Source: a phage. Taken from it: a stretch of 61,121 nucleotides of DNA. Positions 26,282-39,575 of this stretch are shown one piece after another. How positions within the stretch are numbered: the first letter of the stretch is position 1; every line of letters starts with the position of its first letter. Position numbers and translations under genes: made by a program. The stretch lies in NCBI GenBank assembly GCA_012008225.1, contig GCA_012008225.1_4768.1, one strand, 5' to 3'. Below the pieces are notes generated by a model, which saw only the letters and a program-made list of their open reading frames with translations, did no database searches and was not told the origin of the DNA.

Positions 26282-26481
26282 ATTACACTATTTCGAATTT
26301 CATCATTCCAAACGTATTTCCCCTTCTCACCATTTTTATATGATGGAACAGAGAAAACGGATGAACATGGATATAGTTCTGATGTCGTTAAGCGTATACG
26401 CTTACCGTCAAAAGGTCCACCAACACAAAGGAACAGACCAGTCTTAGGCTTCTTCAAAATGGTTCCTCCCCACCTGTACAC
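26266..26481 (-). CDS. Hypothetical protein
   Basis: 71 aa ORF. Confidence 0.4.
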   Translation of the reverse strand: MYRWGGTILKKPKTGLFLCVGGPFDGKRIRLTTSELYPCSSVFSVPSYKNGEKGKYVWNDEIRNSVIWRTS

Positions 26482-26948
26482 TACGCTCTTTTCAGAGTAT
26501 GGGCTACGTCATAGAAGTTAACACCCTGACCACAACTGCTGCAATACTCACAAGACAACCGCACAGCTTCTTCGGCGCTGCAACCAGCCGCCATTGTTCC
26601 CATTAAGAACTCGAACGCACTACCTTCCGCTATAAATTCGTTAGTGTCTGGTAGACCTAATTTACCGTCACCGTAGATAGGATACACAACAAGATCTTGA
26701 GTGATCGCTATACCATAACGTGAATCCGGATTTAAATCAGAGAAAGGTTCTTTACGTCCATTCGGTGTAACACTCAGATGTTCTATGATATCAGTCACAG
26801 GACGTAGTTTACCAGACATTGCAACAAGACATAACCCAATACCTGGAATATCAACTCTGTGAACTTTATTCGTAGATGTTGCAACATTACCCCATGTGAC
26901 CTCACGATCTACAGCCAATACACCATTACGATAAGCAATTGCGGTCAT
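26481..26948 (-). CDS. HslV/proteasome-like N-terminal-nucleophile hydrolase family protein
   Basis: Starts M-TAIAYRNGVLAVDRE (Thr at position 2, as HslV TTIVSVRRNGHVVIAGD); later segment FIAEGSAFEFLMGTMAAG parallels HslV LIAIGSGGPYAQAAARA. Confidence 0.5.
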   Translation of the reverse strand: MTAIAYRNGVLAVDREVTWGNVATSTNKVHRVDIPGIGLCLVAMSGKLRPVTDIIEHLSVTPNGRKEPFSDLNPDSRYGIAITQDLVVYPIYGDGKLGLPDTNEFIAEGSAFEFLMGTMAAGCSAEEAVRLSCEYCSSCGQGVNFYDVAHTLKRA

Positions 26949-27298
26949 ATTAAACGCCCATATATGTGATAAATTTTATAAGCAGTAGAAAGACCAATAT
27001 TAAATTCTTTTGCTGCAACCTGAAATCTATTCTCTTCACCAGTGTAATTTCTAAGAAACTGATAAATTTCCTCTTTATCCAAGTTCCGGTTACGTGTGAT
27101 TGTCGAACCACCAAGCCGGCGCATGTCGCGTGTGGTCGCGAATCTTCGCTTGATCTGAGCTACTGTACCAACATACCAATACTTTGCCCCATTTTGCCCA
27201 ATAGCCGCGTGCACGCATCGCGGCGTACCTGTTTTAGCAAACTTGCGCTTTGCAAATTCACACGCGAGTTCTGCATTGTCAAAACGTTGCAAGCTCAT
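26945..27298 (-). CDS. Hypothetical protein (possible helix-turn-helix)
   Basis: 117 aa ORF. Confidence 0.45.
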   Translation of the reverse strand: MSLQRFDNAELACEFAKRKFAKTGTPRCVHAAIGQNGAKYWYVGTVAQIKRRFATTRDMRRLGGSTITRNRNLDKEEIYQFLRNYTGEENRFQVAAKEFNIGLSTAYKIYHIYGRLI

Positions 27299-28080: not shown

Positions 28081-28445
28081 TATTGCACTTCCACAATTAA
28101 TAGTTCACCATGACGTTCACGAGCGAGATTATATAATTCTTGCTTCTGCCCAATACTTAATTCGCAGTCAAGGATTGCAATATCACAATGAAAGCCACTC
28201 GTACGAATAACAGTGTCTTCATATGAGTCTTTGCGATGAGAAACCAAACGAAGGTGAAAGCGATCAAACTGTACTACGGAAGACTCACGTGACAGTTGTA
28301 CACAACGAACGAATTCAGGATCTTCGCGCAACACTTCTTCAAGCTGCCGGCGATACTCATTAGTCGGGCACAAAGCAAAAGCGACGCGATCGTCTTTTAG
28401 CTGTGGTCTCAGCATAGACCAGGCTTTAACTATATTCTCGTTCAT
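28080..28445 (-). CDS. Hypothetical protein
   Basis: 121 aa ORF. Confidence 0.45.
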   Translation of the reverse strand: MNENIVKAWSMLRPQLKDDRVAFALCPTNEYRRQLEEVLREDPEFVRCVQLSRESSVVQFDRFHLRLVSHRKDSYEDTVIRTSGFHCDIAILDCELSIGQKQELYNLARERHGELLIVEVQ

Positions 28446-28529: not shown

Positions 28530-28817
28530 TTAAGGTAACGTGAACCAGCCTAAGTTCTCCGCACCGAGCAACCATGCGTACACAATCAGTGAACCTAAAA
28601 TAAGAACACTAAAGAAGTTCGCTTTCTTACGTTTGATGTTTGCAGCTTGTGGATTGCATACACACCATATGAAGAAATGTTTAACGACTAAATATACAAG
28701 TGAAATGATAACAGCGTAACGCATAAACGGAACATACCAGATTACAAGACCTAAAATAATTGCAAGAATCCAGTTAATACCTAGCCATATTGCACTACTG
28801 AAAGCCAGAACGAACAT
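28530..28817 (-). CDS. Small integral membrane protein, first gene of the minus-strand block
   Basis: 95 aa, three hydrophobic segments; ATG at 28817 with GGAGA upstream. Confidence 0.5.
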   Translation of the reverse strand: MFVLAFSSAIWLGINWILAIILGLVIWYVPFMRYAVIISLVYLVVKHFFIWCVCNPQAANIKRKKANFFSVLILGSLIVYAWLLGAENLGWFTLP

Positions 28818-29167
28818 AGCGGATCTCCTCTCGAGTATTTACATACAGAACTAACTTTATACGAACAATATAGGACAGGTGAGGTGAGGATATAAAGTGT
28901 CTAGTGACGAGATAATCTACAAACGATGAATCCTTGGCAGAGATCTAAGAGCCGCCCCGCGGCGTTACTATAACGTCCCGTGATCGTCAGTGAGGTGATT
29001 GTTACGTCATGTGACTGTTGCGCGCTCTACTGTAACGTTGTTTATTATTACACGCGTTATTATTTTTAATAGATTAGTATGCTATCTATTACATGACTAT
29101 ACTATAACGTCCAGTATAATTGCGTCTGTTACTATCCACCTGCCCACTATGTGCTGTCTATGTACGT

Positions 29168-29239
29168 GCTACCTGGTATTTCCGGCGCGTGCTGTTACCT
29201 GGTATTTTCGACACGCTCGCGCTACCTGGTATTTCCGGC
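29168..29239. repeat. Three direct repeats GCTACCTGGTATTTCCGGC (middle copy GTTACCTGGTATTTTCGAC) at 26-27 bp spacing
   Basis: Copies begin at 29168, 29194 and 29221 in the divergent intergenic region; first and third are identical 19-mers. Confidence 0.7.
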
Positions 29240-29317
29240 ACACCATCTACCGTATAGTCCCGGATGTTATTATTATGAAGTACAACTAAAAAAGTTCTAA
29301 AATAATGCAGATAATAG

Positions 29318-29346
29318 TTGCATCTGATACCCCGTTGTCATACTAT
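29318..29346 (+). promoter_or_regulatory. Sigma70-like early promoter
   Basis: TTGCAT (29318-29323), 17 nt spacer, TACTAT (29341-29346); ~75 nt upstream of first early gene. Confidence 0.45.
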
Positions 29347-29421
29347 AACTGCGTAGGGTTAAGGGGGTTTTTAAGCGGGACACGGGTTCCGCGCCCGCCT
29401 CACCCGAAGGGAGATTGCATT

Positions 29422-29727
29422 ATGTCCATTATCTACTTACCGCGTTCCATGTCCCAATCTCAGATTACTAAGCGCATTATCGGCAAGCGCCTGCATCAGC
29501 TGGGCCTTACTGCGGAAAAGGTTGACGGGGATTGGGGTTTCGATGAGTATCTGGTAATGCTCCCGGGCAACGAAAAGTATTCCAGCACCGCGTTATATAT
29601 TCGCATTAACGAGGACGGCACTGTTAGCTCTTATAGCGTAATGTACGGTCGCCCAGTATGCCAAGCTAACAGCCTTTGGTCTGTGTTCTGCTTCATTACA
29701 ATGATAGCTAAAGCTATCCAACAATAA
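29422..29727 (+). CDS. Early protein, paralog family A (copy 1)
   Basis: ATG at 29422 after GGGAGA (ORF-track frame from 29305); shares ITxRIIGKR and downstream pattern with gene 30871-31128. Confidence 0.6.
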   Translation: MSIIYLPRSMSQSQITKRIIGKRLHQLGLTAEKVDGDWGFDEYLVMLPGNEKYSSTALYIRINEDGTVSSYSVMYGRPVCQANSLWSVFCFITMIAKAIQQ

Positions 29728-29803
29728 TAGCGTGCTAATGGTTGCCCATTGTTGCAGTGGGCTCCCACTAGCAATCCGCTAGAACAACATGGAGATAATT
29801 ACA

Positions 29804-30283
29804 ATGGCTACTATCACTCGCGTAGCAAAAGATGCTCGCTTCTTCACTAATATGTCTAACGCTCGCCGTGCCTTGAAAAAGGTTCTGGATGTGGACACTG
29901 CGACAGCTAACAGCTTTATTCACCAGGAGCCTCTCGAAGACGGTGGCCGCTACTGGTTCAGCGAAAGCGCGGTTAATAAAGCAGCTAACGATCTGGTTGA
30001 AGCTGATAAAGCGACTGTCGTGGAAGTGACCACACAACCTGCTCCAACCGCTCCCGCTAAAAGCAAAACACGCAGCGAAACGCGCAACGGGGTCCGTCGC
30101 CCAATTAAAGGTAAATGTGCAGACGTTTGGAACGCTCTGGATAATATTTTGCCTGATGGTGTGCCAACTATTGGTAACGTCCGTGACCTTGCGAAAGCTA
30201 ATGGTTGGAATATTAATAATGCAACGATTGAATTCTACGCATGGCGTAAATTCCACGGGCTCAATAATAAAGGGGGCAACTAA
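29804..30283 (+). CDS. Hypothetical early protein
   Basis: ATG at 29804 after GGAGA; 159 aa. Confidence 0.55.
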   Translation: MATITRVAKDARFFTNMSNARRALKKVLDVDTATANSFIHQEPLEDGGRYWFSESAVNKAANDLVEADKATVVEVTTQPAPTAPAKSKTRSETRNGVRRPIKGKCADVWNALDNILPDGVPTIGNVRDLAKANGWNINNATIEFYAWRKFHGLNNKGGN

Positions 30284-30285
30284 TT

Positions 30286-30360
30286 ATGTTCTACTTATTA
30301 GCGTTCTTGGTATTCGGAGCTCCAATAGTTGCGGGTCTGTATTATACGGAGGGCAAATAA
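30286..30360 (+). CDS. Candidate 24-aa hydrophobic micropeptide (MFYLLAFLVFGAPIVAGLYYTEGK)
   Basis: ATG at 30286, 8 nt after AGGGGG; not in ORF track (too short); ends at TAA 30358-30360. Confidence 0.3.
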   Translation: MFYLLAFLVFGAPIVAGLYYTEGK

Positions 30361-30361
30361 T

Positions 30362-30547
30362 ATGGAAACTATAGTTCTTTATTGTTGGGTTGACCTGGAC
30401 GAACACGAATATTGTGTGAATATTAACAACGGACCAGTCCCGGACGTAACTTTCGCATCCTATGACGAAATGGATGCGTATGTAAAAGGTTTCCGCGAGT
30501 GCGCTCGCATTGCAAATATTAACGTGACTGTAATTTTACCGGAGTGA
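30362..30547 (+). CDS. Hypothetical early protein
   Basis: ATG at 30362 after GGAGGG; 61 aa acidic protein. Confidence 0.5.
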   Translation: METIVLYCWVDLDEHEYCVNINNGPVPDVTFASYDEMDAYVKGFRECARIANINVTVILPE

Positions 30548-30552
30548 CTATC

Positions 30553-30798
30553 ATGGCCCAAGCTATTATCACCAAATTCGTGAACCCGACTTCCGCTCGC
30601 GCTCCGCGCGTAAAAGCAACAGGCTGGAACGGCTCTGTAACTATCACATGGCGTGACGATGTGGGTGTTTACGGCAACCACCGCGCCGCAGCGGAGGAGC
30701 TGATCAATAAGTTTAACGCTAAAGCGGGAGTTGAGTTTGAGATTATCTCCCACGGGGAGCTCCCGGATCAAAGTGGTTACGCGTTTATCGTTGCATGA
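30553..30798 (+). CDS. Early protein, paralog family B (copy 1)
   Basis: ATG at 30553 after GGAG; similar in pattern to gene 31158-31406 (M.AI..K...PT.S...R.KA.G ... AAA.EL ... G.LPD). Confidence 0.6.
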   Translation: MAQAIITKFVNPTSARAPRVKATGWNGSVTITWRDDVGVYGNHRAAAEELINKFNAKAGVEFEIISHGELPDQSGYAFIVA

Positions 30799-30870
30799 GT
30801 GACATATACATTGCCCATAGTAACAGTGGGCAATAATATGCACTTCGCATAGTTAACTGAGGAAATTATT

Positions 30871-31128
30871 ATGTCTACAATATTAAACCAGTCAATGATC
30901 ACCCGTCGCATTATCGGCAAACGTATAGCTAATCTTGCGACTATCACCGCAGAGCTGGAAACTTTCGGTAATAACGCGCGCAAATATCGCGTCCGTTGCA
31001 ATGGTCTTAACGTTTATTTAACTGTGTTCAACGACGGTAGAGTTCACGCGGAACTGCATACTATGGGCCGCCTGGTTGCAACAGCGTCCACGCTGGCGGG
31101 CTTCATCAACCTGTTAAAAAACTGCTAA
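30871..31128 (+). CDS. Early protein, paralog family A (copy 2)
   Basis: ATG at 30871 after GAGGA; MSTILNQSMITRRIIGKRIANL aligns with copy 1. Confidence 0.6.
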   Translation: MSTILNQSMITRRIIGKRIANLATITAELETFGNNARKYRVRCNGLNVYLTVFNDGRVHAELHTMGRLVATASTLAGFINLLKNC

Positions 31129-31157
31129 CATTTAAAATTGTAACGGAGATAACTAAT

Positions 31158-31406
31158 ATGAACGCTATCCATGTCAAAGCACTGGCACCGACTCAATCCA
31201 AAGGTATGCGCTTTAAAGCAGTCGGCCTCGGTATGTGCGCAATAACTGCAAACGACTACAACCTGAACGGTGAAGCAAACGCCGCTGCCGCTGCGCAGGA
31301 GTTACTCGATAACTACAACATGCAGAACAGGTCACTTCAACTTAAGATACTTGGAGTTGGTACGCTTCCAGATAATACCTGGGCTGTACTATTAACTTGT
31401 AAATAA
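31158..31406 (+). CDS. Early protein, paralog family B (copy 2)
   Basis: ATG at 31158 after ACGGAG; aligns with gene 30553-30798. Confidence 0.6.
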   Translation: MNAIHVKALAPTQSKGMRFKAVGLGMCAITANDYNLNGEANAAAAAQELLDNYNMQNRSLQLKILGVGTLPDNTWAVLLTCK

Positions 31407-31429
31407 GTTCTAACTGCATTATACAGTCC

Positions 31430-31466
31430 GCGCCCTGTTGAAGTCCAACGGGGCGCTTTCGTTTTG
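31430..31466 (+). terminator. Rho-independent terminator ending the early operon
   Basis: 11 bp stem GCGCCCTGTTG/CAACGGGGCGC (one G-U pair), loop AAGTC, then TTTCGTTTTG. Confidence 0.7.
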
Positions 31467-31469
31467 TAC

Positions 31470-32430
31470 CCGCACCACCTCCCGCGTTACCCTGCTGACC
31501 ACATGTTACTCACCCATAACTGCACCATTCGCGCTCTAAGAGCGTAACTCCTTCCTCCGTACATTACCATAGACTCCAAACTAGTCGCTTTATACGCCTT
31601 TACAGCGATCCGCTCCCTGCTTCCCTGTACGCGATTTTGCGGCATTTTCGCCCCTCACTGCCACCATTGCACTGATCCAACCGCTTTATCGCGCTACGCG
31701 CCCCATTTTCGCGGCTATTTTCGCTTTATGGGCTACCCGCTACACCGATCCCAGCCACCAAACCTCACCGAAATGCTCGCTTTCACCGAAAAATCCGACA
31801 TTTATACCATAAAATAGAATCGTTTTCGGGCTACAAAAATTCAGACTCAAAAATCCGATTCGCTCCGAAAGTCACTTCAACAAAAATCGCTTGCAATCTA
31901 GTTTTCTTTTGTGTTAGACCGCGTGCCCGCATTATGCGCGTGCGCGAGCTTGTGAGCGCCTCGTTGTTGCGCAACAAATATTTCTTATATTGCTCGTATA
32001 TTGTCGCTTAATATACGAAATGAAAGGAGGTAAGTGCATGAAAAATAAGGTAAAAATGTGTATGTGTGTGTATTTATATAAATTTTATAAAGATTTTTTA
32101 TTTTTGAGTTGTCTACTGACGACCCCACGAGACCCCTTTATAAATAATATAAATCACTATAAACCTCCCAATCCCCAAAATTTTCCCTTATTTTTCATAC
32201 ACTTCGCTTCGCCGTTTCGTATATTGCTGGATCTTTATAAATTGTGCATTTTTTCACCGATCTTTATAAATTTGCAAATTCTCACCTTCAGACTGTTGTA
32301 ATTTTTGCAAAAGCAAAAACTTTGCATATACAAAACACCGCAAAACATCACAGTTGCAAATAGCAAAAACTTTGCATAAATTAAAACTTGGCAACTGAAT
32401 TTCAAAATCAGTCGATTTATTATTATCAAG
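31470..32430. promoter_or_regulatory. ~1 kb noncoding repeat-rich region (candidate replication origin / regulatory hub)
   Basis: GC-rich part with reiterated short motifs (CGCTTTAT x3, ATTTTCGC x3, CACCGAAA x2, AAAATCCGA x2); perfect 14 bp palindrome TTGTTGCGCAACAA (31964-31977); AT-rich part with direct repeats GATCTTTATAAATT (32230, 32259) and AGCAAAAACTTTGCATA (32312, 32362). Confidence 0.4.
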
Positions 32431-32439
32431 GGTGAGGTT

Positions 32440-33061: not shown

Positions 33062-33331
33062 ATGGTTGACAAACAAGATCTGCTTCCTAAGTGGTATCCA
33101 GATTATCGTGAGTCGGATACTTTGATGCGTATTCAGTTTATCTTGGATCACCAGACTGACTTTTCATTACATTTAAGGGAAGAGCTCCGGCAAACGAATA
33201 TGAAGAACTTATGGGCTATCAAGAAACGTCTTCGTTTAAGGGAGCATCTTAATGACCTGCATAAAGTTATGCAGCAACTTATACGGTACAGCATCCGTAT
33301 TAAAGAATCGCATGATATCTGGAGGAAGTGA
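33062..33331 (+). CDS. Hypothetical protein
   Basis: ATG at 33062 after GGAG; ORF-track frame 32948..33331. Confidence 0.5.
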   Translation: MVDKQDLLPKWYPDYRESDTLMRIQFILDHQTDFSLHLREELRQTNMKNLWAIKKRLRLREHLNDLHKVMQQLIRYSIRIKESHDIWRK

Positions 33332-33336
33332 CGGGA

Positions 33337-33669
33337 ATGATCAAGTTAAAATGGTACGTGGATCCTGAGCCAACAGGGCCATACAGGTCTTTCCAACGTA
33401 GAGGGTGGCCGACTTGTTACAACGGTAATCCTGATAAAGAAGATTGCGATGTGCTTGCAACCATTGTGAGTCTTAACCGTGATGGATATGAAGGTCATTA
33501 CGCAAGGGCGACAGACTTACGTCTGAAAGTCCGTATATACTTCAAGGTCGGTGGAGAACACCGCACAGGACTCTCTAAGGAAGAGTTCAGTAGCATTGCT
33601 GAAGCAAAGGCATGGCTTAAAACCTTCTACAAGAATAACCCTCAATACTACCCATTTAAGGAGAAGTGA
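33337..33669 (+). CDS. Hypothetical protein
   Basis: ATG at 33337, 10 nt after GGAGGA (ORF-track GTG at 33328). Confidence 0.55.
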   Translation: MIKLKWYVDPEPTGPYRSFQRRGWPTCYNGNPDKEDCDVLATIVSLNRDGYEGHYARATDLRLKVRIYFKVGGEHRTGLSKEEFSSIAEAKAWLKTFYKNNPQYYPFKEK

Positions 33670-34019: not shown

Positions 34020-34395
34020 TCTTACTCAGAAGGCTGTGCGGTACTTCGGTGAAGTGTTCTTTGTTCCAGTGTGGGCCAAATATCTTGCGGTAGACGAGGA
34101 CGGTACTTTAACTGCATTTGAGAATGAACCTCAGTGGTGTGAATGTATTGATGGCGATGGTTTTTGGGTATTAACTGAGCCAGGTATTGAAATCGATATC
34201 TGTTATAACGTAGATCTTGAAGGTATGGATTTCAAAGAAACGTGTGTTAATATAGACTATAAAGTAAGCGACAATCCTCATGACCACACTGAATGGTTCG
34301 AACGTATACGCAAAGATGATTATAAGCGATCATTGCTAGGCAAATGGACGCCGAAATGTGGTCAACTGAATAAAGAAGGTGATAAAGATGAATAA
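34009..34395 (+). CDS. Hypothetical protein
   Basis: ATG at 34009, 5 nt after GGGAGG. Confidence 0.55.
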   Translation: MQINLTQKAVRYFGEVFFVPVWAKYLAVDEDGTLTAFENEPQWCECIDGDGFWVLTEPGIEIDICYNVDLEGMDFKETCVNIDYKVSDNPHDHTEWFERIRKDDYKRSLLGKWTPKCGQLNKEGDKDE

Positions 34396-34924
34396 AGAAT
34401 GTGTGCGTTTATATCAAGAGCGTGACGCTTTTGAATTAGATAAAGCTGGTGGCTTTTATTCTCGTCATGTTATGGCAATGACGTCCGAACAATTGCATAG
34501 TAAAAGTGCTATTGCTGCGGAGTTGGGCCATCGTGATATGCGAATTGAACAATTGGAGAAAGAGTTGCAGGCTCTTCGCTCTATCCTTGCGGATCCTGTT
34601 ATTATCCCTCGTGAAATGACAGACGACATTGGTGAAGCTATTGCCCGGGAGGCACATTGTTGCGGCGGCATTGCGTACAGCATTTATGAAGCAATTATTG
34701 CAGTAGTTAAAGAGCCGTTCAAGAATACTACGCTAACTCAAGAAGAAATTGATATTCTTCAGACTGACATCCTTACTTTGTGCAAGCGTATTAAAGACGC
34801 GTATGAAGAAGGTTTATTTGATAAGCAATGGAACCAGGAAGTTCAGACAGACGAACAACTGTGGAACGCGTCTACTGCGAAACGTATCCATGACGCATTG
34901 ATCAAACAAGCTATGGAGCAATAA
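34388..34924 (+). CDS. Hypothetical protein
   Basis: ATG at 34388 after AAGGTG; 178 aa. Confidence 0.55.
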   Translation: MNKECVRLYQERDAFELDKAGGFYSRHVMAMTSEQLHSKSAIAAELGHRDMRIEQLEKELQALRSILADPVIIPREMTDDIGEAIAREAHCCGGIAYSIYEAIIAVVKEPFKNTTLTQEEIDILQTDILTLCKRIKDAYEEGLFDKQWNQEVQTDEQLWNASTAKRIHDALIKQAMEQ

Positions 34925-38836: not shown

Positions 38837-39124
38837 ATGTCCAGTTACAATCTAGCAGCTATTAAAATTGTGTACGGTGCTCTATACCAGGATGAGGAGT
38901 TCCCAGGCATTGAGCAGGCAATTAAAAGAATCAAGTCTAATCGTGTTGACTCGGAACAACTGTTCGCCTATGCTTTAGCCATCTCCGGTAATAAAGTACA
39001 AGGAAGTTACTACAAGATTCTGTCCGATCAGTTAAGGAATGTGATACTAGAAAGAGATTTAATACGAAATACGGTAATTTTGAAAGGTGAAGATAATGAA
39101 CTGGCAAAATTATTTCGAATATAA
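38837..39124 (+). CDS. Hypothetical protein
   Basis: 95 aa; ATG at 38837 after GAGGGT. Confidence 0.5.
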   Translation: MSSYNLAAIKIVYGALYQDEEFPGIEQAIKRIKSNRVDSEQLFAYALAISGNKVQGSYYKILSDQLRNVILERDLIRNTVILKGEDNELAKLFRI

Positions 39125-39575
39125 TGCTGGGCAATTATATTGGAAAACTAAGCCTTCCAAACGTATTAATATAGGACAGAAGGCCGGATCCGTTAATTGT
39201 CAGACTGGTTATGTTACAATTCAATTTCAAGGTAAGATTTATCAAGCCCACCGAATCATTTGGGAAATGCACTACGGACCAATTCCAGAAGGGATGGAGA
39301 TAGACCATATCTGGCACGATAGGAAGGACAACCGTATAGAAAACCTGAGGTTGGTGACTCGTACAGGTAATCAGCAGAATAGGTCAAAAGGTAAGAATAA
39401 TAAATCAGGTGTCGTTGGGGTTAATTGGAATAATAAAGAAAATAAATGGGAGGTGTTTATAGGTGTTAACGGTAGGCAAAAATACATCGGTCTTTTCGTT
39501 GACTTTAACGAAGCAATTAAAGCTCGTAAACAAGCCGAAGACAAGTATGGGTATCATGAAAATCATGGAAATTAG
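39096..39575 (+). CDS. HNH homing endonuclease with AP2-type DNA-binding domain
   Basis: ATG at 39096 (ORF-track GTG at 39087); HNH region EIDHIWHDRKDNRIENLRLVT...NQQN; C-terminal GVVGVNWNNKENKWEVFIGVNGRQKYIGLFVDFNEAIKARKQAEDKYG is AP2-like; free-standing between genes. Confidence 0.8.
   Translation: MNWQNYFEYNAGQLYWKTKPSKRINIGQKAGSVNCQTGYVTIQFQGKIYQAHRIIWEMHYGPIPEGMEIDHIWHDRKDNRIENLRLVTRTGNQQNRSKGKNNKSGVVGVNWNNKENKWEVFIGVNGRQKYIGLFVDFNEAIKARKQAEDKYGYHENHGN

Follow-up and report, generated by a model that had tools for sequence, protein, structure and literature searches.

The divergent intergenic region of this phage genome contains a phased array of three short repeats, each built on a site of about 19 bp, GYTACCTGGTATKTYCGRC, that is centred on a 9-bp palindrome. 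Our tentative reading is an accessory, operator-like element: by serving a putative sequence-specific DNA-binding protein it would tune transcription in the divergent region, and it is lineage-specific and dispensable to the phage; for this function we infer both the binding of a protein and its effect on transcription. The array is best classed among the short protein-binding repeat arrays of phage control regions, as one that has not been described before. The window, by which is meant the whole stretch of 61,121 bp that was analysed, is the genome of a Nonagvirus, an E. coli phage of the phage 9g type.

Anatomy and conservation of the repeat array

The 19-mer GCTACCTGGTATTTCCGGC is present as identical copies at 29168-29186 and 29221-29239, and a diverged copy, GTTACCTGGTATTTTCGAC, is located between them at 29194-29212, so that the start-to-start distances are 26 and 27 bp. 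The original prediction had described this 19-mer, its diverged copy and the 26-27 bp period, and the sequence confirmed each of them. It was also right in placing the repeats between the start of the minus-strand gene block, where the ATG ends at 28817, and the early promoter, where the TTGCAT −35 hexamer is found at 29318. The repeats themselves were delimited as repeat 1 at 29165-29186 (CGTGCTACCTGGTATTTCCGGC, with the palindromic core TACCTGGTA at 29170-29178), the diverged repeat 2 at 29191-29212 (GCTGTTACCTGGTATTTTCGAC, core at 29196-29204) and repeat 3 at 29218-29239 (CGCGCTACCTGGTATTTCCGGC, core at 29223-29231). All three copies share one orientation and a single genomic location. Tandem Repeats Finder called the array with a period of 26-27 and 2.8 copies, and no second repeat family of this kind was found in the whole window.

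The core TACCTGGTA is a perfect 9-bp palindrome that has no other occurrence in the 61 kb. The degenerate motif TACCWGGTA occurs three times in 61,121 bp, with all occurrences inside 62 bp, whereas shuffled sequences averaged 0.34 occurrences and in 100 shuffles three were never reached. A 15-nt consensus searched with at most two mismatches had five matches in the window compared to 0.81 expected. Each core includes CCTGG, which we take to be a Dcm/EcoRII site. The symmetry of each site is limited to the 9 bp of TACCTGGTA; the 3′ extension, TKTYCGRC, is conserved and has no mirror partner. A palindrome of 9 bp places the half-sites only 5 bp apart; helix-turn-helix dimers seldom use such a spacing, and this counts against the operator reading. 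Because the 26-27 bp period is close to 2.5 helical turns, sites 1 and 3 would be found on one face of the helix and site 2 on the opposite face.

Across 18 genomes with 54 copies, the TACCTGGTAT positions are invariant in 52 of the 54, and T19, C21 and C24 are also conserved. The site derived from these copies reads G-Y-TACCTGGTAT-K-T-Y-C-G-R-C, approximately 19 nt in which the core is symmetric and the 3′ half is not. When kinship between the genomes is ignored, variable columns are less frequent in the core than in the spacer, both in the 18 genomes (2/30 versus 16/56, Fisher p = 0.024) and in the 13 array-bearing genomes that, together with phage JenP1, make up the 14-genome alignment (1/30 versus 14/56, p = 0.015). 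The spacers differ between the three copies (CGTGCT, GCTGTT and CGCGCT) while the cores are identical, although the core of copy 3 is point-mutated in two genomes. The core is not conserved significantly better than the other intergenic positions (p = 0.1-0.2), and since the genomes are 94-97% identical here, the conservation of the array is weak evidence for its function. The palindromic core, the conserved 19-nt site, the single orientation and location, and cores that are steadier than their spacers make a binding array the best reading. The original prediction had proposed such an array for a regulator, a packaging protein or a replication protein; of these the regulator survives, while packaging and replication are disfavoured by phage JenP1, as described below.

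Other readings of the repeats were tried and rejected. A coding element is inconsistent with copies 1 and 2 being in different frames and with single-base indels in the intergenic alignment. A structured RNA (a nut-like or put-like element, or a leader) was rejected on the lack of an Rfam match (E ≤1), fold z-scores of −1.95 and −1.4, and copies that fold differently. Each repeat could be viewed as an extended −10 promoter (TGGTATKTY); copies 1 and 3, however, have C at the decisive final position, and promoters spaced by 26 bp are implausible. The possible DnaA box at 29132 matches at 7/9 positions and is not conserved. A host regulon site was rejected after searches for two cores 14-19 bp apart, with one genome per bacterial species, gave unrelated matches, none of them enterobacterial; complete E. 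coli genomes and plasmids contained nothing similar to 28900-29420. As for such arrays elsewhere in viruses, the matches read outside Nonagvirus contigs were tandem repeats within genes of giant-virus and other AT-rich contigs, or chance pairs.

The virion DNA end and the terminal repeat

The intergenic region of the window is 94-97% identical to that of the Nonagvirus phages 9g, JenP2, JenK1, SE1, HdSG1 and HdK1 and of the BASEL phages Bas19 and Bas20. Of the flanking genes, two were tested (the 121-aa leftward gene and E5), and they match essentially Nonagvirus alone, with E5 also matching more weakly in three related Klebsiella and Escherichia phages. For phage 9g, a read-start hotspot at position 28,243 was taken to mark where the packaged DNA physically ends on the left, and a direct terminal repeat was inferred, by Kulikov et al. 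2014 (PMC4276943). The same authors predicted that the untranslated sequence of the left end, 473 bp long (603 bp when the genome is circular), carries two promoters, and stated that the layout "evokes" temperate phages; they found no integrase-like gene (PMC4276943). The array repeats go unmentioned in that paper, and the word "repeats" is absent from its text (PMC4276943). Direct terminal repeats are also reported for iggy, a related phage of the Queuovirinae whose genome is bidirectional (PMC10484667).

Alignment of the 9g record places its position 28,243 at 28949 of the window. The GenBank records of HdSG1 and HdK1 contain the region at both ends; their right ends read GAGCCGCCCC / GAGCCGCCCCGCGGCG..., equal to window 28949, and their left ends equal window 32140-32144. 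By these alignments the virion DNA end is at window 28949. Given this end and the record ends of HdSG1 and HdK1, the direct terminal repeat is predicted to span about 28949-32144 (about 3.2 kb), with its far boundary taken from two GenBank records of one study. It is present as a single copy in the circularly permuted assembly of the window, within which no long repeat was found, and it encloses six small early genes as well as the array and the early promoter. The array is located 220-290 bp inside the DNA end at 28949. The control region described for 9g (PMC4276943) is the same locus as the array; how long the terminal repeat is, and where its far boundary falls, comes from the later HdSG1 and HdK1 records.

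A terminus element of 51 bp at 28928-28978 straddles the virion end at 28949 (GAGCCGCCCCGCGGCG...) and is the longest invariant intergenic stretch. It is common to all 14 genomes aligned and is partly conserved in Klebsiella phages and in the contig L059. In the two relatives with intergenic sequence that was read, L046 and L059, the terminus-proximal element GCCGC..GCGGCGTTA, followed by GGTGAGGTGAT...GTGAC, is retained. The stretch at 28928-28978 is likely the region of terminase cutting and recognition and thus a candidate packaging signal, separate from the array. After it, at 28982-29017, is found GATCGTCAGTGAGGTGATTGTTACGTCATGTGAC; both stretches are recognisable in Klebsiella Queuovirinae phages (L046, 2690-2762) and in L059 (3163-3215), and GGTGAGGTG is present twice in both groups, at 28880 and 28991.

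The far boundary of the terminal repeat (about 32140-32144) is crossed by a stretch of approximately 1 kb, 31407-32439, without a convincing gene. This gap contains tandem 29-bp units, GATCTTTATAAATTGTGCA..., at 32230-32286 and two copies of AAAGCAAAAACTTTGCATA, at 32309 and 32359. Similarly long gaps are seen in relatives (L046, 5027-6266, and L059, 5152-6303), and an Rfam search of 31407-32439 gave no match.

Promoters, second motif and neighbouring genes

The best-supported promoter of the region is the early promoter TTGCAT-17-TACTAT on the plus strand at 29318-29346. Its hexamers are retained in all close relatives, with the better −10 TATTAT in several, and are retained in JenP1 despite a wholly different spacer and upstream DNA. 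The promoter is also clear in L059 (TTGCAT-17-TATTAT), a relative with an E2 protein only 64% identical. On the upstream side of this promoter, the array stops 79 bp short of the −35 and overlaps neither the −35 nor the −10, and the array sites are centred about 126 to 179 bp upstream of the promoter's start. Between the two is an A+T-rich stretch at 29262-29317 (77% A+T); A+T content is also high at 29035-29130 (72%), compared to 57% for the genome.

A consensus scan found seven promoter-like sites in 800 bp where 2.3 were expected. The leftward site TAGACA-18-GATAGT (minus strand, 29131-29160) is a weak consensus match only, at 9/12, and 4 bp separate the end of its −35 from repeat 1, with 7 bp between that end and the conserved 19-nt site. 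The array is directly upstream of this weak promoter-like site, within the non-coding control DNA found at the terminal repeat's left end. The rightward site ATGACT-16-TATAAT (plus strand, 29093-29120) is a 10/12 consensus match that overlaps a BPROM promoter of the 9g record; if it is active, the array would be about 40 to 110 nt into its transcript. The leftward site TTTAGA-18-CATAAT (minus strand, 29272-29301), a consensus match only, is the BPROM "PL" of the 9g record and, if active, would place the array within the early transcribed region.

A second motif in this region, which had been reported at about 28958 and 29107, is real, but those positions were off by 6-9 bp: TACTATAACGTCC starts at 28966 and 29100. 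Its first copy, at 28966-28981 (TACTATAACGTCCCGT), is 17 bp inside the terminus, and its second, at 29100-29135, opens a 36-nt unit, TACTATAACGTCCAGTATAATTGCGTCTGTTACTAT. Looser copies were found at 29028 (TACTGTAACGTT) and at 29341 (TACTATAACTG, which includes the −10 of the early promoter). The 36-nt unit (TACTRTAAYGT...GTTAYTAT) occurs at 29028-29063 and 29100-29135, and three times in JenP1 (L004, positions 4201, 4274 and 4365), with the units 72-91 bp apart. The second motif is the first 12 nt of this unit and its minus strand reads TATAGT, which is −10-like.

Other structured sequences were observed nearby. The leader of the early operon (29352-29421) contains an invariant GC-rich hairpin, GCGGGACACGGGTTCCGCGCCCGC, at 29373-29398 that is retained in JenP1, and the leader folds with a minimum free energy of −29.9 kcal/mol and a z-score of −1.8. 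A 28-bp near-palindrome, TGTCGTTAAGCGTATACGCTTACCGTCA, is found at 26383-26410 in the leftward gene block.

The first early gene, E1 (29422-29727, plus strand), encodes 101 aa and belongs to phrog_13865. Its AF2 model (pTM 0.72) consists of a helix, five strands and a helix, is neither helix-turn-helix nor Cro-like, and had no significant structural neighbour. E1 and E5 (30871-31128) form a paralogue pair, both in phrog_13865, and E4 (30544-30798) and E6 (31158-31406) form another, both in phrog_3199. E4 and E6 exist as two alleles that are about 65% identical and are shuffled among otherwise close phages. The first gene of the leftward block (28530-28817, minus strand) encodes 95 aa with a membrane-protein-like sequence. 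It has no match in JenP1; the HdK1 record annotates an HNH endonuclease there, and the records of ESCO3, PD328 and BRET have no gene annotated at this place. The HNH gene of HdK1 is directly to the left of the intergenic region, with homology to the window restarting at 28928, and HNH homing endonuclease genes are found at differing places in Nonagvirus genomes (window 39087-39575; L005, 2874-3353; L004, 6974-7447).

The search for a binder among the flanking proteins found none. The ten small flanking proteins had no Pfam match (E ≤0.1), and their PHROG families are all of unknown function. The C-terminal three-helix bundle of E2 is well modelled, and its best matches are homeodomain-like and non-significant (Foldseek E of 0.4-1). 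A 117-aa ORF at 26945-27298 gave a weak helix-turn-helix-like match (E = 0.04), and PDB sequence searches with E2 and with this ORF were empty. The Klebsiella phage protein at the same map position has a weak match to a "late transcriptional activator" family (E = 2e-4), and it has no detectable similarity to the 117-aa ORF.

No phage gene was found to be lost in step with the array. E5, which is also absent from JenP1, was ruled out as a covarying gene by its absence from 9g, SE1 and SP8; the 113-aa ORF (33328-33669) by its presence in only four Nonagviruses; and the N-terminal part of the 181-aa ORF (34379-34924) by being shared with HdK1 alone. The E4 and E6 alleles were also rejected, as SE1 and L057 have the JenP1-type alleles (about 62-66% identical to the window) and yet have three copies of the repeat. 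Any binder encoded by the phage must therefore still be present in JenP1; failing that, the binding protein would come from the host.

Natural variants and the function of the array

Phage JenP1, which has been isolated and forms plaques, has no TACCWGGTA in its 60,754 bp. It is closely related to the window, with identities of 98.9% for TerS and TerL, 97.2% for the primase-helicase and 99.8% for the DNA polymerase, and it retains the invariant terminus stretch. The segment corresponding to window 29147-29337 is swapped in JenP1 for about 700 bp that contain a promoter-like site and a 102-aa ORF without a family match. This module (L004, 4310-5030) has a GC-rich structured leader; its 102-aa ORF is AKA60942.1, with no PHROG family. 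The −35 of the early promoter, which JenP1 retains, is overlapped by an inverted repeat of 10 bp, GTTGGATGC..GCATCCAAC.

Apparent intermediate forms were found in metagenome assemblies of uncultured contigs, with two copies in L053 and one in L050, each by in-register deletion. The copy number of the array in nature is thus 0 to 3. The array is absent in the distant relatives examined, namely three contigs with E2 about 64% identical, two Klebsiella phages and Escherichia phage Ec1-ASingh, and nothing comparable was found in the two non-coding regions examined in Seurat, of a sister genus. An equivalent array of other sequence was found in none of the Klebsiella phages, L059-L061 or Seurat; three 10-bp units in tandem were seen in one Klebsiella phage, but they are unrelated to the array and missing from that phage's relatives. 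The original prediction had proposed a motif search in related genomes, with absence of the repeats to count against it, and the outcome was divided: the array is conserved across the 9g clade, but it is absent from JenP1 and all examined distant relatives. Because JenP1 and these relatives are without it, sequence comparison shows the array to be dispensable, and any function that it has would be non-essential.

Nonagvirus-sized contigs (55-59 kb) with E2 are filed under isolate assemblies of Shigella sonnei, Shigella boydii and E. coli, and one human-gut contig with the same region (L052) is 77.6 kb, which exceeds the genome length. These contigs may reflect a carrier state of the 9g type, or contamination and concatemer assembly.

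A role in packaging or replication is disfavoured because JenP1 is without the array but has near-identical terminase and replication proteins, and because the copy number ranges from 0 to 3. The three sites could be origin iterons, possibly auxiliary, at which an initiator binds the three 19-bp sites and melts the adjacent A+T-rich DNA. The 19-bp direct repeats in a single orientation, the A+T-rich flanks (72% at 29035-29130 and 77% at 29262-29317, versus 57% for the genome) and the location at the strand-switch point where the cumulative GC skew turns would all suit this explanation. The skew turn, however, coincides with the change in transcription direction and so is not independent evidence, no Rep-like initiator gene was recognised nearby, and the DnaA-box-like TATCCACC at 29132 matches at only 7/9 positions, with a core position that varies in ESCO3 and PD328. 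Variants with one and two copies exist, distant relatives are without the array, and the natural variant JenP1 keeps a primase-helicase and polymerase 97.2% and 99.8% identical without any copy, all of which makes iterons rather unlikely. Lambda cosB has three sites for the small terminase subunit inside the end that is packaged first, and the array could likewise be a terminase recognition array of the lambda cosB or pac type, at which the small subunit positions the cut at 28949 for rightward packaging. Its location 220-290 bp inside the mapped end, on the side that is packaged according to the inference of the 9g authors, is in agreement with this role (PMC4276943). We nevertheless consider it very improbable, as JenP1 is without copies while its TerS and TerL are 98.9% identical and its terminus stretch is retained, the copy number falls to two in L053 and one in L050, and it is the 51-bp cut-site stretch, not the array, that is common to 14 genomes and recognisable in the Klebsiella phages and L059.

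The main rival to an operator is neutral tandem duplication, which we regard as unlikely though less so than iterons: slippage or unequal recombination would have tripled the 26-27-bp unit in the ancestor of the 9g clade, and the copies, without a function, would persist because these genomes are young. Such a history is consistent with an array that is confined to one shallow clade of 94-97% identity, missing in JenP1 and in every relative whose E2 is no more than about 64% identical, and variable between 1, 2 and 3 copies through in-register deletions, and with a core that is not significantly steadier than the rest of the intergenic region (p = 0.1-0.2). It does not predict a perfect 9-bp palindrome in the conserved part, which is not expected by chance, nor substitutions that spare the 10-nt core (2/30 versus 16/56 columns, p = 0.024); diverged spacers with identical cores are predicted neither by pure neutrality nor by homogenisation of whole units. 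The least probable of these explanations is a signal for DNA entry or defence, in which a bound protein pauses or anchors the entering genome, or the CCWGG sites act as a decoy or sensor for a host system. The array is inside a long terminal repeat with small early genes, which recalls the pre-early region of T5, and there is a Dcm/EcoRII site, CCTGG, in each core. The array is dispensable in JenP1, though, and CCWGG is neither depleted nor unusual, with 107 sites in the window and 104 in JenP1.

The layout of the array most resembles the lambdoid three-part operator. Lambdoid OR and OL each have three dyad-symmetric sites between divergent gene blocks, every site being about 17-19 bp long and its centre about 23-27 bp from the next, and the array similarly has three internally symmetric sites about 25 bp apart in non-coding DNA between divergent blocks. 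In contrast to the lambdoid sites, which have a dyad across about 17 bp, the array sites have a palindrome of 9 bp with an asymmetric remainder, all three point one way, they are off the −35 and −10 of the well-supported early promoter, and no cI-type or Cro-type gene was found adjoining them; promoter overlap and a neighbouring repressor gene are both features that define the lambdoid family. Origins offer another comparison, as lambda ori has four 19-bp dyad-symmetric sites for the O protein beside an A+T-rich region. The array is similar in its same-orientation repeats of about 19 bp, its internal symmetry, its regular spacing and its A+T-rich flanks, but it has no associated initiator gene, and JenP1 is without it while having near-identical replication proteins. 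Terminase sites beside a cut site include R1-R3 of lambda cosB, pacL and pacR of SPP1, and the short repeat arrays by the T7 terminal repeat. Like these, the array is a few hundred bp inside a defined DNA end; unlike these, a phage with the same terminase does without it, and the conserved element is the sequence that spans the terminus. For the first-step-transfer stop of phage T5, a bound protein has been proposed to pause or anchor the entering genome.

An accessory operator-like array thus remains our tentative choice. A putative phage or host protein would bind the sites of about 19 bp (GYTACCTGGTATKTYCGRC) centred on TACCTGGTA, and occupancy of the sites would tune transcription of the divergent region. 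The bound array may have an activating or a blocking effect on the flanking leftward promoter and on the rightward one upstream, or it may modulate the early promoter across the A+T-rich spacer, in the manner of a three-part operator. Against this reading, no binder was found among the flanking proteins, and the sites are off the −35 and −10 of the well-supported promoter.

It is also conceivable, if improbable, that the array works only through its place in the terminal repeat, with a protein on its three sites tying the early-to-late switch, or the carrier state reported for 9g, to the genome's physical form. Leftward transcripts that pass or start near the array in the left copy would run off the DNA end at 28949, while in the right copy or in concatemers the same promoters would read into the late genes. 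If this were true, it would be a kind of switch that has not been described before.

If the array is a neutral duplication, it remains a tidy annotation only. Nonagviruses such as 9g, Bas19 and Bas20 of the BASEL collection are model phages with archaeosine-modified DNA, in which about a quarter of the guanines of the virion DNA are archaeosine (PMC8594841), and their early regulation is uncharacterised. JenP1 and the variants with one and two copies provide natural controls, and if the array is an operator, it would offer a route to the first regulator of the Nonagvirus group.
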